Positions 1 through 31,514 of a DNA stretch of 31,514 nucleotides are shown one piece after another. Made by a program: the position numbers and the translations under genes. The DNA is from a virus. Where the stretch lies: the IMG/VR virus record IMGVR_UViG_3300045988_120591, positions 1-31,514 of that record, one strand, 5' to 3'. Below the pieces are notes generated by a model. The model was not told the origin of the DNA. It saw only the letters and a program-made list of their open reading frames with translations, and searched no databases. Numbering within the stretch: position 1 is the stretch's first letter; each line of letters begins with the position of its first letter.

Positions 1-55
1 ATCAGTTGTTTCTGCAAATGCCCATTTTGGATCTACTAATACAAGATTTTGAAAA
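1..55. repeat. Terminal direct repeat: bases 1-55 are identical to 31460-31514. This is the assembly overlap of a circular or circularly permuted genome with unique length 31459 bp.
   Basis: Direct comparison of both window ends. One minus-strand ORF runs across the junction in a single frame. Confidence 0.9.
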
Positions 56-654
56 TTATTCATTACAGAGAAATCATTATTATCTATTATTACTCCAATA
101 AATAAATAATTTGCGCTTACTTCTTTAGTAGTTGTAGGTATTTTAACATTAGATAAAGTAGCACTATGTATTGTTTGACCATAAAATTGAAATTCATTAG
201 CCCATTTTCCATATGCTTCATTAAGATTAGTAATCTCCTGGTTATTTAGATCAAAATGAGATGTTTTAAAAAACCCTCCTTTTCTACTTAAATCTCCACT
301 ATTTAACTTTACATCTGCATATGTTTGAGCAGAACTTATAATACTACAAAGAAGTACACCATCTATATTAAGGGCTAATTCACTTAAATCGGCAGTAAAA
401 CTAATTACTGTAGAATTAAGGCCAGATCCTCTACCCATTCAATCCCTTTGTATATCATTTATAGTTCCATCATAACTGCTAAATACATAACTGCAAGGAT
501 CAACTATTGTAGTACCTTGAGGAACTGGATTAGCAACTGTAACTATTTGTGGATTACAAGGATTGATAGGCCAGACTTTGGTACTGCCAACATAAATAGC
601 AGTACCTTGTCTGTCACCTACATAAAATGTTTTTAAATCATCTCTAATATTCAT
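1..654 (-). CDS. DUF285/BspA-like leucine-rich-repeat protein, paralog 2, N-terminal part. The whole protein is 373 aa and continues across the circular junction into 30992..31459. Candidate receptor-binding protein.
   Basis: ATG at 652-654 lies directly after the TAA of the fibre gene. I translated 56-438 codon by codon: the frame is open, with a single TGA at 439-441, and it is in phase with the ORF at the other window end. Confidence 0.6.
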
Positions 655-655
655 A

Positions 656-2791
656 TTATTCTACAATTAAATATTGTGTATTAGGATCTTTAGTTGATAA
701 ACTATTATACTCTGCTTGAGTTAGAACAGTAATAGTCTCTATTTGAGGTTGAGTTCCAGTTCCAGCTTCAATATAGTTTCCAGCAGGCTGAATACCTAAA
801 TCTGATAAACTCTTATTGCCAGATAACTCAACAGAATTAATCTGAGGTTTATTTGTTAACTGAGTATAGTCAGTAGTCCCTCCACCTCCAGATATTTCAA
901 GATTACCTTCTCCTAAAATACTTTCACCATTAATAGTCTTTATATTAGTACCAGAAACTAACTGTTCTTGATAACTATGATAACTAGTATCAGCAGATAC
1001 TCCAGTTGGAGTAATAGTAGTTTGAACTACAGTATGATTAGCTGTAGTACTTTCAAAATGGAAAGTAGCTTGAATATTTTCTCCTGAAACAAAACATACT
1101 TCTGGAGCTGCTATATCACCATAACCTAGAATACTTACATAATAAAGCTCAAATGGTGTTTTATTAGCTATAGCATTCTTAACAGCAGCGAAATCTCCAG
1201 AAAGATGAGTAGTGGAATTTATAAATAGAAATGGAATATTAGAGCCACTTTCAATTTCTATATTACCTTCTCCAAGTAAAGACTGACTATTGATTGTTTT
1301 GATATTAGTTCCACTTACAAGCAAATCTTGCTTAGTAGCCATCTCTTTATCAAGAGAATCAATCTTATCTCCATCTTCTTCTTGTTTTGTTTTAATAATT
1401 GATATATCTGAAGTATTAGTTGCTACTTGAGTAGATAGAGATTCTACCACAGAAGAATCAGCTTTACCAGCAAGTTCTGTTTTTGTTGCATAATCTCCTA
1501 CAGGCTGTTTAGTAGCAAGCTGCTCATCAACATAAGTCTTATCTGCTTTACCTGCTAAATCTCCAGAAACCTCTGCTTCACTTACAAAGTTAGAATCATT
1601 AGTAAGCTCACTAATTTTAGTTGGAATATCACTCTTTAAAGCATAATCACCAACTGGTTGGTATCCAGATAAATCTACAGATAATTGGGATTTATCTTCA
1701 TTAAAAGCTAATGGAGCTTGTGGAGTAAATACACCTTGCTTAGTTGCAAGTTTCTCATCTACTTCATCTTTAGTATAACCTTTATTAGTAAGATCAACCT
1801 CAGTAACTTTAACAGTCATATTACCATTATTTACTAAGATTGCATTAATAACTACTAATACACCATTATCTTGAAAATAATAGCCATATAAATCAATAGT
1901 TTCGGGATGCTCAATAGTTGCAACAGGAATAACTATAATATCACCTTTATATGTAATCTGGCAGAATAAATAGAAGTCCAGATTAGTTCTAATAAAGTCA
2001 TAGATATGTTTCTGTCTTACAGGATCATTCTCATCTAAATTAAGTAAGAAATGATTCTCAAAAGCAGAGATTACATTATCTATAATAGATATATTCTTTC
2101 CTGCTGTAAGCGTTCCCTGTTTTGAAGCTATCTCTTTATTAATAGCTGTATTTAAAGCATCAATTTCAGCTTTGGTATATTTATCTGCTAATTGTGCGTA
2201 TAGAGGACCATTAACAATACCAGCTTGATTAGTCTCTGTATTATATATTGGAAGTTCAACTGCTTCTCCAGTTTGATTACCAAATACAGGAGCTAAAGTA
2301 ACTTTAGATGGGACTGATTGAATATTAATGGCAGGTACTATTGAAGCTGCTCCAGATAATTCAGTTCCATTTAAAGATGGTTTGTTACGAATAGTATTAT
2401 AATCTGCAGAAATAGTATTCTCTTCAATTACTATACCGTCACCTTGAACGAGTGTATTTTGCTTTCCAGCAGTGGCTTCAGTAATCTCTGTAGTTACCTC
2501 TTCTTTAGTTGGATAGTCAGCTAGTTTCTCAGTAATCTGATTATCAACATCTTCAATAGAAGGAATTCCTAATTCTTTAGAAGGAATATTTCCATTTAAT
2601 TCAACCCCATTGATTTCAGGCTTAAATTGAAGATCTTGATAGTTACTTGATCCTAACTGAGAACCATCCATAACCTTAACTTCATCATCCTTGTCAATAA
2701 CAATAACTTTAGTCACATTTGACTTATCTATTGTTTCGACTTCAAGGACATTAAGATAGGGAAGAATTGTCTTTTCAGTTTTGTTTGCCAT
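656..2791 (-). CDS. Tail fibre protein (711 aa) with internal repeats
   Basis: Uninterrupted ORF ending in TAA. Repeats include LVSGTNIKTIN..S.LGEGN.EI (x2) and KP.ING.EL.GN (x3), plus ATKQ/GKADK fibre-like periodic motifs shared with 30097..30750. There is no Trp codon of either kind. Confidence 0.6.
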   Translation of the reverse strand: MANKTEKTILPYLNVLEVETIDKSNVTKVIVIDKDDEVKVMDGSQLGSSNYQDLQFKPEINGVELNGNIPSKELGIPSIEDVDNQITEKLADYPTKEEVTTEITEATAGKQNTLVQGDGIVIEENTISADYNTIRNKPSLNGTELSGAASIVPAINIQSVPSKVTLAPVFGNQTGEAVELPIYNTETNQAGIVNGPLYAQLADKYTKAEIDALNTAINKEIASKQGTLTAGKNISIIDNVISAFENHFLLNLDENDPVRQKHIYDFIRTNLDFYLFCQITYKGDIIVIPVATIEHPETIDLYGYYFQDNGVLVVINAILVNNGNMTVKVTEVDLTNKGYTKDEVDEKLATKQGVFTPQAPLAFNEDKSQLSVDLSGYQPVGDYALKSDIPTKISELTNDSNFVSEAEVSGDLAGKADKTYVDEQLATKQPVGDYATKTELAGKADSSVVESLSTQVATNTSDISIIKTKQEEDGDKIDSLDKEMATKQDLLVSGTNIKTINSQSLLGEGNIEIESGSNIPFLFINSTTHLSGDFAAVKNAIANKTPFELYYVSILGYGDIAAPEVCFVSGENIQATFHFESTTANHTVVQTTITPTGVSADTSYHSYQEQLVSGTNIKTINGESILGEGNLEISGGGGTTDYTQLTNKPQINSVELSGNKSLSDLGIQPAGNYIEAGTGTQPQIETITVLTQAEYNSLSTKDPNTQYLIVE

Positions 2792-2845
2792 ATTATTTTT
2801 CTATAAAATATAAATTATTCATTATGTGGTATATAAACAAAATAA

Positions 2846-2871
2846 GGGGCAAGTAAATTAATACTCGCCCC
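2846..2871 (-). terminator. Rho-independent terminator after the capsid/tube genes
   Basis: GGGGC(A)AG ... CT(C)GCCCC stem. On the minus strand it is followed by TTATTTTGTTT and sits 12 nt after the tube gene stop. Confidence 0.6.
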
Positions 2872-2882
2872 TCTTTCTGTTA

Positions 2883-30095: not shown

Positions 30096-30096
30096 A

Positions 30097-30750
30097 TTAG
30101 ATTACTTCACCATTAATTGTATCAAGAGTAGTTGAAATATTACCAATCTGAGCTTGAATAGCTGAAATTTCTCCATCTAACTCTGTCATCTTTGTATTAT
30201 ATGTATCTGTAGTTACATAGTTTGATAACTCACTTTTATCTGCTTTAGTTGCAACTTCATCTTTAGTAGCTAATTCAGATACATCAGGAATCTTATTCTC
30301 TACAGCTGTAAGCTCTTCTTTAGTAGCAAAATCACTAGTATCAGGAATTTCTGCTTTAGTTGCATAATTACTTAAATCTACAGATAATTGCAGACCTTCT
30401 CCATTTCTATGTAAAGATAGAGGCTGATTAGCTTGGAATACTTCCATTTTAGAAGTCTCTAACTCCTCAACTTCTCCTTTAAGATTAGTAATCTCAGTAT
30501 TAATTGGAGCAAGTTTGGCATCAATAGATTGATCTACTAAAGGTGGAACTTGATCTTCAATACTTTCTGTTACTTTAGTATCAATTAACTCTTCTGCTTT
30601 CTCTTCAGAAATGTAATTACCTTTAGGTTGGAATCTTTCATCTGCTTCAATCTTAGTATAAGAACCAACAGGAAGTTGTCCAGATTCAATCCCACATTTC
30701 TTACTTACATAGAAAGTTTGTGTATTTTTAGTATTCTTAAGTATAATCAT
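30097..30750 (-). CDS. Tail fibre-like protein 2, 217 aa
   Basis: Periodic YATKAEIP / FATKEELT / LATKDEVATKADKSEL motifs like those in 656..2791, with a coiled-coil C-terminus. Confidence 0.55.
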   Translation of the reverse strand: MIILKNTKNTQTFYVSKKCGIESGQLPVGSYTKIEADERFQPKGNYISEEKAEELIDTKVTESIEDQVPPLVDQSIDAKLAPINTEITNLKGEVEELETSKMEVFQANQPLSLHRNGEGLQLSVDLSNYATKAEIPDTSDFATKEELTAVENKIPDVSELATKDEVATKADKSELSNYVTTDTYNTKMTELDGEISAIQAQIGNISTTLDTINGEVI

Positions 30751-30752
30751 AA

Positions 30753-30989
30753 TTATCTAACTTTTATTGATTCCTCATACTCTTTAGAAGCTTTAATAGC
30801 TAACTCTTTATATTCAGCATCCTTATCTAAAGAGACTTCTGATAGATGCTCTAAATCGCAACTTAAAGGACAGATACATTCAGTAAATGAACTATACACT
30901 TTAATATCCATTCCTTCTTTATAGTTAGTAAGTACATAACCTTCTTCTGGACTAACTACTTTATATTTTTCTTTAATTTCAATTTTCAT
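30753..30989 (-). CDS. Hypothetical protein, 78 aa
   Basis: ATG at 30987-30989 (MKIEIKEKYKVVSPEEGYVLT..) follows the TAA of the upstream gene at 30992. Confidence 0.45.
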   Translation of the reverse strand: MKIEIKEKYKVVSPEEGYVLTNYKEGMDIKVYSSFTECICPLSCDLEHLSEVSLDKDAEYKELAIKASKEYEESIKVR

Positions 30990-30991
30990 AA

Positions 30992-31514
30992 TTATGCAAT
31001 TCGATTTATACTTCAATTCTTTGAAGCTATTAATGATTTCTGTTCATCTGTAAGTTTATCATATGCAGTAGATTTTAATGATATACTTGTATAAGAAGCT
31101 ACTGCTGTACCAATAGATTCTGCTATAGTTTGTAATGAATCTGTAGATAGATTTGGAGATTGTGCAAAGTAAAGAACTCCTCCTTTAGTTAAATTCTCTC
31201 CTAATCCATTTAAAGCTCCTACAGTTACTAATTCTGGACAATTTGCAGCAAAACTAGTACAATCTGTAACAAGATAACAATCTATTTCTGGTGTAGCTGT
31301 TAATCTACTACAAATATTAAACATATAGCTTATATCTGTAATTCCAGTAAAGGTAAAATTACTTGGAATAGTTGTTAGATATAATGCTCTATGAAACATA
31401 TGATTACAATCTCCTTTAAATGGAATATTAATCGTTATATTATCTATATTAGTAGCTCTATCAGTTGTTTCTGCAAATGCCCATTTTGGATCTACTAATA
31501 CAAGATTTTGAAAA
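30992..31514 (-). CDS. DUF285/BspA-like leucine-rich-repeat protein, paralog 2, C-terminal part (31460-31514 duplicates 1-55)
   Basis: DUF285-type repeats ..HMFHRALYLTTIPSNFTFTGITDISYMFNICSRLTATPEIDCYLVTDCTSFAANCPELVTV... Reads through TGA at 31013 (..ASKNWSINRIA) to TAA at 30992. Confidence 0.6.

Follow-up and report, generated by a model that had tools for sequence, protein, structure and literature searches.

The window analysed here, the whole 31,514 nucleotides (nt) of IMG/VR virus record IMGVR_UViG_3300045988_120591, is the complete circular genome of a tailed double-stranded DNA phage in which the codon TGA almost certainly stands for tryptophan. Its first and last 55 bases (positions 1-55 and 31460-31514) form an exact direct repeat, which indicates a circular genome with an assembly overlap at k = 55 and a unique length of 31,459 bp. 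The G+C content is 29.5%, and the source of the phage is most likely the human gut. Copies of 100% identity are present in an ENA assembly (31,513 bp), in a contig of a Joint Genome Institute (JGI) metagenome (31,557 bp, circularly permuted) and in a Logan assembly, and the phage occurs in samples ERR3451139 and JGI 3300029737. The genome holds a full set of structural, packaging and lysis genes. Nearly all genes lie on the minus strand and only two on the plus strand, within 20924-23376; a non-coding stretch of 153 bp (20771-20923) separates divergent gene starts, and another of 503 bp (23377-23879) separates convergent gene ends. One gene of 373 codons spans the junction of the window (654..1, then 31459..30992), and the C-terminus of its product (..EQKSLIASKNwSINRIA, where w marks a residue encoded by TGA) is paralogous to that of 29076-30095. 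Gene junctions are tight, with TAATG overlaps at four of them and gaps of 1-2 nt at many others, just as an earlier note, made from the sequence of the window, had described the packing of starts and stops. No match in INPHARED was obtained by megablast with 24 kb of the window, and in tblastn against the same collection the large terminase (TerL) was less than 30% identical to that of any cultured phage, which gives no clue to the host. The public annotations of the genome conflict: the JGI gene calls read through TGA and keep genes of 339, 371 and 215 aa intact, whereas those of ENA and Logan, made under code 11, break the genes into fragments.

The earlier note had proposed that TGA is reassigned from stop to sense throughout the genome, and that coding density should rise if it is read in this way. 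In a uniform greedy cover of the circular genome with open reading frames (ORFs), code 11 gave a coding density of 79.0% (49 genes, median 133 aa, 8 strand switches) and code 4, with TGA as sense, a density of 92.4% (36 genes, median 192.5 aa, 6 strand switches). With TAG as sense (code 15) the density was 82.3% (56 genes, median 108.5 aa, 16 strand switches), and with TAA as sense it was 88.9% (55 genes, median 131 aa, 28 strand switches); these two codes bring fragmentation or strand switches and no clean genes. The gain in long ORFs with TGA as sense was confined to the coding strand, whereas TAA as sense inflated both strands. The fused ORFs of 726, 780 and 415 aa and the fused portal ORF (371 aa) put forward by the earlier note were recovered at the coordinates given in Table 1, as was the 1147-aa ORF, which has this length from its ATG and would reach 1160 aa from an upstream TTG. 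Apart from the single stop that ends it, this frame is free of TAA and TAG, of which the two alternative frames have 69 and 129, and the probability of finding no TAA or TAG, calculated from base composition, is about 2e-35. Likewise, the 212 codons of 13777-14412 include two TGA, no TAA and no TAG.

With refined starts, 52 in-frame TGA codons are distributed over 21 of the 36 coding sequences (CDS), or 54 over 22 if the overlapping ORF 15419-15736 is included, which agrees with the earlier estimate of about 54 in 22. They stand beside 79 TGG, so that two tryptophan codons would coexist, as had also been suggested. The 36 CDS terminate at TAA (31) or TAG (5) and never at TGA; the endings claimed in the earlier note stand, and its total of 40 CDS was slightly high. 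For genes containing TGA such endings are true by construction, and they are informative only for the 15 TGA-free CDS, all of which likewise end at TAA or TAG. ORF 14817-15338 begins with two further TGAs at its 5' end, but relatives have TAA there, which places both before the real start of the gene. The reassignment covers the whole genome insofar as TGA nowhere terminates a gene, but its in-frame use is patchy, with none in the block 656-6176 or in 21655-23376.

Restored reading frames alone cannot separate table 4 from table 25, under which TGA would encode glycine, as in phages of Absconditabacteria and Gracilibacteria, and the identity of the amino acid was therefore read from aligned codons and residues. 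Within the window, TGA falls exactly at the positions of conserved tryptophans named in the earlier note: at 12359 and 19576 in the HNH motif (minus strand, ..NLE[w]CT..), at 12164, 19354, 23892 and 27911 in the motif KG(F/Y)x[w].., and at 29094 and 31013 in ASKN[w]; on the plus strand, 20924-21409 reads ..LNALNwDwIKYANQ.. through three TGAs. Paralogs within the genome exchange the two codons. In ENLEWC and GFIWKY, the HNH paralog 18541-19107 uses TGG, and its paralogs 12152-12631 and 19330-19845 use TGA at these positions; of the two GIY-YIG paralogs, 4973-5584 has TGG where 27893-28540 has TGA. The TGAs at 9160 and 9148 are real and correspond to TGA or TGG in relatives; the BACON-like label attached to them found no support, as the 1147-aa protein matches no Pfam family, BACON included, at E ≤ 0.01.

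The same exchange is seen among about 75 related phage loci, for which codons were tabulated. At the TGA columns of the window, recoded relatives have 1261 codons: 711 TGA, 305 TGG, 76 for tyrosine, 21 for phenylalanine and only 6 (about 0.5%) for glycine, so that TGG makes up 305 of the 550 codons other than TGA. At the TGG columns of the window, in turn, they have 1100 TGG and 276 TGA. Such replacement of TGA by TGG and of TGG by TGA is the pattern of synonymous interchange. In an alignment with TGA masked as X, searched by tblastn against 26 more distant loci without TGA recoding, tryptophan was the commonest of the 159 residues at the masked columns (W 51, L 19, Y 19, F 13, G 3), and the residue profile resembled that at TGG columns. 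At the three masked TGAs of 19330-19845, the sequence of I-HmuI of Bacillus phage SPO1 (PDB 1U3E) contributes the residues W, Y and F. Homologs of TerL down to 47% identity have W or F in its TGA column, which is occupied by TGA (31) or TGG (5) in relatives, and the TGA column of the portal gene corresponds to W 6, L 8 and Y 1 in standard-code relatives. The five TGA columns of the 726-aa gene are TGA or TGG in relatives, with some Tyr, the TGA column of the Peptidase_M15_3 gene is TGA in 19 of 19 relatives, and the family-wide tryptophan codons of the 1147-aa tail gene comprise 224 TGA and 317 TGG. The columns thus match tryptophan or aromatic residues in relatives, in standard-code loci, in I-HmuI and in TerL alike, as the earlier note had predicted for homolog alignments. 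The near-absence of glycine from both the codons and the residues at these columns, the two-way exchange of TGA and TGG and the residues of I-HmuI leave a glycine reading with a vanishingly small probability, and table 25 is excluded.

Under code 11 the ENA and Logan gene calls break up, which could be taken to mean that the TGAs are genuine stops in a degraded or pseudogenised phage, or that they are sequencing or assembly errors. We regard this as extremely improbable: the identical sequence occurs in three independent assembly collections, in dozens of relatives (50-100% identity) no TAA or TAG interrupts the frames, which continue through the TGAs, the TGAs occupy conserved tryptophan columns, and 52 errors that all give TGA and never TAA or TAG are not credible. 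From these comparisons, which make up four independent lines (gene structure, internal paralogs, codon substitutions in close relatives and masked alignment to standard-code homologs), and having found no counter-evidence to tryptophan, we conclude that TGA almost certainly encodes tryptophan in this genome and that only TAA and TAG terminate, as in NCBI table 4. This table is needed to annotate the genome and its relatives, as table 11 fragments about a third of the genes. Selenocysteine and isolated read-through were ruled out by the 52 sites at tryptophan columns that interchange with TGG.

Table 1. Coordinates of features in the window and of fibre segments shared by related loci, with TGA read as sense
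Feature	Coordinates	Strand	Remarks
TGA-free six-gene block	656..6176	-	0 TGA, 11 TGG
Coiled-coil protein with hydrophobic C-terminal part, 780 aa	6372..8714	-	1 TGA; tape measure by inference
Tail protein, 1147 aa	8716..12159	-	7 TGA, 12 TGG; two C-terminal TGAs at 9160 and 9148
NUMOD4 + HNH_3 homing endonuclease	12152..12631	-	5 TGA, no TGG; TGAs at ENLE[w]C and KGYI[w]KY
Virion/tail protein of unlabelled family, 726 aa	12634..14814	-	5 TGA read as sense, 11 TGG
Overlapping -1 frame ORF	15419..15743	-	2 TGA; opened by T9 slippery run 15735-15743
Large terminase TerL, 415 aa	16223..17470	-	Pfam Terminase_6N + 6C; 1 TGA at residue 187
NUMOD4 + HNH_3 + NUMOD1 endonuclease	18541..19107	-	TGG at two motif positions that have TGA in paralogs
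NUMOD4 + HNH_3 endonuclease	19330..19845	-	Pfam; 3 TGA
T5orf172/MUG113-domain gene	20924..21409	+	3 TGA
Superfamily 2 (SF2) helicase-like protein, 573 aa	21655..23376	+	Motifs DEYH, QxxGRxxR; 0 TGA, 5 TGG
NUMOD1-containing endonuclease-like gene	23880..24449	-	3 TGA
Peptidase_M15_3, putative peptidoglycan endolysin	24449..24901	-	Pfam E = 2.9e-14; 1 TGA
Portal, 371 aa	26830..27945	-	Pfam Phage_portal; 1 TGA
GIY-YIG + NUMOD3 endonuclease	27893..28540	-	5 TGA; paralog of TGA-free 4973-5584
Shared fibre segments	L112 13780-16035; L044 1-1682; L088 12406-12838; large side L136-L148		

The genes of the TGA-free block 656-6176 encode a protease-like protein, a GIY-YIG protein, a scaffold-like protein, the putative major capsid protein, a 174-aa protein and a 711-aa fibre (Phage_tail_C). 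The 726-aa protein has no Pfam or PHROG match. For the 780-aa ORF, of which the ENA code-11 annotation calls only a 515-aa piece, the fusion proposed in the earlier note stands, and its designation as a tape measure is presumptive. The helicase label of 21655-23376 comes from motif reading and a weak Pfam match only. Within 15562-16221, a gene of 219 codons, the slippery heptamer T_TTT_TTT lies in frame exactly where a -1 ORF of 105 codons opens. Both frames at 15419-16221 are conserved as protein in relatives, and the C-terminal TGA column of ORF 15419-15736 is W in six standard-code relatives; this ORF is a candidate for an extension of 15562-16221 by programmed -1 frameshifting.

Homing-endonuclease-type genes are unusually numerous for a genome of 31 kb and together make up about 11% of it. 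The set comprises three NUMOD4 + HNH_3 genes, two GIY-YIG genes, one gene with NUMOD1 only and one T5orf172 gene. Several overlap their neighbours by 8-53 nt, and they vary in presence among relatives, with 2-6 unique orthologs each. Beside the HNH gene 19330-19845 lies 19089-19346, which encodes an 85-aa protein with a helix-turn-helix domain and weak similarity to Sigma70_r4, and upstream of it lies 19793-20107, whose 104-aa product had no match. Speculatively, these two could be the halves of a regulator split by insertion of the endonuclease gene.

The use of TGA is uneven. TGA accounts for 40% of the tryptophan codons of the window, compared with a mean of 76% for the NNA codon over five other NNA/NNG pairs (binomial p = 8e-19). 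In three Mycoplasma phages the share of TGA lies close to the corresponding expectation (P1, 0.95 against 0.86; MAV1, 0.77 against 0.82; phiMFV1, 0.87 against 0.89); these phages thus show the TGA frequency of neutral synonymous use, of the type seen when phage and host codes match, and the window does not. The block 656-6176 and the 573-aa plus-strand gene together have no TGA among 16 tryptophan codons, whereas elsewhere 50 of 110 are TGA (Fisher p = 2e-4). The pattern extends to the family: expressed as TGA/(TGA + TGG) over unique orthologs, the share is 0/149 in the putative capsid gene, 0/24 in the scaffold-like gene, 1/91 in the 174-aa gene, 1/80 in the helicase-like gene (1 TGA against 79 TGG) and 10/126 in the portal gene, and it amounts to 30-100% in tail, fibre, lysis, membrane and endonuclease genes. 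TGA is also frequent in the terminase gene, in contrast to its near-absence from the putative capsid, scaffold and helicase-like genes. The avoidance in the helicase-like gene is not compositional, as the NNA bias of this gene is 0.80. The putative major capsid gene (3448-4353) stands apart in having a G+C content at third codon positions of 0.31, compared with 0.06-0.30 (mostly 0.12-0.26) elsewhere, and an NNA share of 0.41, compared with about 0.76 for the genome. This codon usage is consistent with translational selection acting on the gene of highest expression, and parallels the full avoidance of TGA there. With 21 of 36 CDS containing TGA and the replication-type helicase-like gene spared, the genome resembles stop-recoded phages of standard-code hosts. 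Recoding of structural and lysis genes is nonetheless mixed: tail, fibre, terminase, M15 and membrane genes are recoded, whereas the putative capsid, scaffold and portal genes avoid TGA.

A tRNA able to read UGA was sought in the phage and its family. Neither ARAGORN nor Rfam at E ≤ 1 found any tRNA in the complete genome; the Rfam search returned two sub-threshold matches at chance level, snoR43 and sraA (sraA at 23837-23935, E = 0.38). ARAGORN on 108 related loci (1.69 Mb) detected no UGA suppressor, and its sole tRNA was a Sup-CTA in L051, a distant TAG-recoded relative; by these searches, a tRNA with anticodon UCA (tRNA-Trp(UCA) or Sup-TCA) is not encoded by the phage. Pfam and PHROGs searches of about 30 proteins found no release factor, aminoacyl-tRNA synthetase, tRNA-modification enzyme or integrase, and Pfam gave no match to any other translation factor. 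As neither a tRNA nor a homolog of a release factor or aminoacyl-tRNA synthetase was found, UGA decoding would be supplied from outside the tRNA repertoire of the phage.

Among the relatives of the window are over 70 loci of IMG/VR and the 303 sequences of a TerL cluster. Scanning IMG/VR with TerL gave 37 loci, of which 34 were 80-100% identical, and every one of these 34 was far more open with TGA as sense. The closest non-recoded relative found is L116 (IMGVR_UViG_3300029905_000019; 30,128 bp, 28% GC), with a capsid protein 67% identical. Its 22 genes come out identical whether code 11 or code 4 is applied, TGA serving neither as stop nor as sense, and in this respect it looks like the codon-loss or 'codon unassigned' stage proposed by Borges et al. 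as a precursor of recoding. At 34-37% TerL identity, L051 and L052 are more remote; in these two it is TAG that is recoded, and L051 carries at 5409-5496 a tRNA with anticodon CTA, an amber suppressor. Both are contigs of metagenome-assembled genomes (MAGs), labelled Bacillales and Candidatus Scybalousia. The broad TerL clade holds standard, TAG-recoded and TGA-recoded members, and its code is labile. A scan of GTDB with the TerL profile gave phage-sized contigs only, at 50% identity or less and in mixed bins (Bacteroidia, Clostridia, Bacillales), which is weak evidence for a host.

A second link leads to a group of large crAss-like phages, zeta_12. In the IMG/VR contig UViG_3300045988_175865 (148,631 bp), zeta_12 sequence is joined to the small phage inside a fibre gene. 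The first ~118.8 kb of this contig belong to a family of contigs of 85-171 kb, the complete members of which are about 168 kb long and TGA-recoded and have a crAss-like terminase; one of them, OLVX01000015 (168,412 bp), is 99.8% identical to locus L144. The contig is most likely an assembly chimera of zeta_12 and the small phage through a shared fibre segment, or else a recombinant. Its interpretation as a prophage in a host contig was rejected, as the contig is not a concatemer and the parts read contain no host DNA. Parts of the tail-fibre gene, 0.43-2.26 kb long, are common to three bona fide small-phage contigs and to at least 10 zeta_12 contigs, with 91-97% nucleotide identity. The 433 bp concerned in L088 are embedded in an intact fibre ORF with small-phage genes on both flanks; the mosaicism is real and no product of assembly. 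The window's own fibre gene (656-2791) has only 69 bp at 81% identity in common with the large phages. The similarity of the fibre segments points to recent recombination and a common host, so that the small-phage family and zeta_12 would co-infect the same bacterium. Yutin et al. 2021 list zeta_12 phages as TGA/w without suppressor tRNA; in the available part of their Supplementary Data 1, none of the TGA/w Zeta genomes has a Sup tRNA and most TAG/q genomes have Sup-CTA (PMC7886860). Two unrelated recoded families that would share a host, neither with a detected suppressor tRNA, raise the probability of host-supplied or tRNA-independent decoding and lower that of a helper phage. When metagenomes were scanned for the large phage, five contigs from the human gut came up, OLVX01000015 among them, and none from the window's own sample.

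The Peptidase_M15_3 endolysin implies a host with peptidoglycan and excludes the classical Mollicutes. Together with this wall, the under-use of TGA, its gene-specific avoidance and the labile code of the clade favour a standard-code host and a switch imposed by the phage, and we give about even chances to infection of a walled, standard-code gut bacterium. The exchange of fibre segments with crAss-like phages, whose cultured members infect Bacteroidota, is an indirect hint in the same direction. In such a host, tRNA-Trp or a host suppressor would read UGA after a phage function has removed the competition by release factor 2 (RF2), and the TGA-free genes would be those needed early or in the largest amounts. 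Several observations speak against this model. No RF2-inhibitor or code-switch gene was identified in the phage. In the long minus-strand operon TGA occurs as early as its first genes (20097-20531, 19089-19346), a poor fit to a standard code at first and a switch later, and an essential ORF with seven TGAs would require decoding to be very efficient. A host that itself decodes UGA is the simpler explanation for two unrelated recoded families, both lacking a suppressor tRNA, that appear to share a host, and the MAG bins with distant relatives are mixed (Bacteroidia, Clostridia, Bacillales) and hold them on phage-sized contigs. A host that natively reads UGA as tryptophan, that is, a code-4 bacterium without RF2 and with tRNA-Trp(UCA), would require no phage-specific function. 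It would account for the lack of a suppressor tRNA in the complete genome and in about 75 related loci, for TGA never being a stop and for its presence on the plus as well as the minus strand and at the head of the main operon; the zeta_12 phages that exchange fibres with the family are also TGA/w, with no Sup tRNA in the part of the list cited above. Walled code-4 Eggerthellaceae of 31-40% GC have recently been reported from mammalian guts (10.64898/2025.12.01.691617), and most cultured code-4 phages match Mycoplasma or Spiroplasma hosts (Cook et al., PMC11210395). However, in such a host one would not expect a TGA share of 0.40 where 0.76 is predicted and the three Mycoplasma phages are at expectation, nor the avoidance of TGA by the helicase-like gene, in spite of its NNA bias, and by the capsid gene. 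The M15 endolysin excludes wall-less Mollicutes, relatives are TGA-unused or TAG-recoded, as in phage-driven recoding, and the known hosts of Crassvirales, to judge from cultured crAss-like phages, are Bacteroidota with the standard code (PMC7886860). We consider a native code-4 host the main alternative, at clearly less than even chances.

The shared fibre segments, one of them in an intact small-phage ORF, and the lack of tRNAs in the small phage also bring to mind piggybacking on the genetic code of another phage, in which the small phage would need a co-infecting TGA-recoded Zeta crAss-like phage to switch the code of the cell; Borges et al. bring up the possibility that co-infecting phages with the same code are sensed (10.1101/2021.08.26.457843). 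This is very improbable here: the zeta_12 phages are themselves listed, in the available part of the source, without a suppressor tRNA and so bring no known helper function, the small phage possesses its own complete structural, packaging and lysis set, the fibre gene of the window shares hardly anything with the large phages, and the large phage did not turn up in the window's own sample. The small remainder of the probability goes to other routes. At well below even chances, the two TGA-recoded lineages that appear to share a host point to a hitherto undescribed route of UGA decoding, through either an unrecognised human-gut bacterium with a cell wall that tolerates or natively reads UGA or a tRNA-independent switch imposed by the phage; inactivation of RF2 that lets tRNA-Trp(CCA) read UGA would be an example of the latter. 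If this is true, TGA could act as a dosage filter, which would explain its avoidance in the most abundantly needed proteins. The under-use of TGA, its gene-specific avoidance and the shared fibre modules each lead to testable hypotheses on the code of the host and on recoding as an expression filter.

The genome belongs to an already documented class of opal-recoded gut phages, and the phenomenon is not new. Code-4 gut phages were reportedly described by Ivanova et al. in 2014. Recoding of TGA to tryptophan in uncultivated gut phages was described by Yutin et al. 2021 (PMC7886860), Borges et al. named eight clades of alternatively coded phages, several of them of 22-34 kb (10.1101/2021.08.26.457843), and a further precedent is found in PMC12386605. 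Cook et al. 2024 reported 46 code-4 viral operational taxonomic units in the Unified Human Gut Virome, with an increase in coding capacity from 78.0% to 90.4% that is close to the figures for the window (PMC11210395). The unusual point is that neither the phage nor its relatives carry a suppressor tRNA, and such a lack is itself common among code-4 phages: Sup-TCA is present in only 35% (Borges et al., 10.1101/2021.08.26.457843) or 15% (Cook et al., PMC11210395) of them. The family thus offers a compact, complete and abundant test case for UGA decoding in opal-recoded phages without a suppressor tRNA. With the code-4 gut phages the window shares low GC, TGA as tryptophan with TGG kept, a tendency of recoded codons towards tail, lysis and other late genes and a replication-type gene compatible with the standard code. 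It also shares with them close relatives on other codes, and the TGA-unused relative fits a route of codon loss followed by capture. Unlike the best-studied TGA-recoded clades (Agate, Jade and Zeta crAss-like phages of 127-200 kb), it measures 31.5 kb. In further contrast to code-4 gut phages, TGA is avoided in some of its late genes, those for the putative capsid, scaffold and portal proteins, so that the pattern is not simply one of recoded late genes, and no tRNA of any kind, release factor or tryptophanyl-tRNA synthetase was found in the window.

The Mycoplasma and Spiroplasma phages (P1, MAV1, phiMFV1) likewise read TGA as tryptophan, have low GC and lack a phage suppressor tRNA. They differ in that their TGA share of 0.77-0.95 equals the neutral expectation, whereas the window falls well short of its own. 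Furthermore, the window encodes a peptidoglycan peptidase, which would be useless against wall-less hosts, and it has no sequence relationship to these phages (TerL less than 30% identical to anything in INPHARED). The code-25 phages of Absconditabacteria and Gracilibacteria resemble it in having TGA as sense and low GC; the TGA columns of the window, in contrast, are tryptophan or aromatic and not glycine. The virion and replication modules of the zeta_12 phages (OLVX01000015, 168 kb) are unrelated to those of the window, with a crAss-like TerL of 772 aa instead of a T4-type Terminase_6 of 415 aa, and their genomes are five times larger and carry 8-15 tRNAs. Nevertheless, they too come from the human gut, read TGA as tryptophan, have no suppressor tRNA in the available part of the list of Yutin et al. 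and possess tail-fibre segments nearly identical to those of the relatives of the window.

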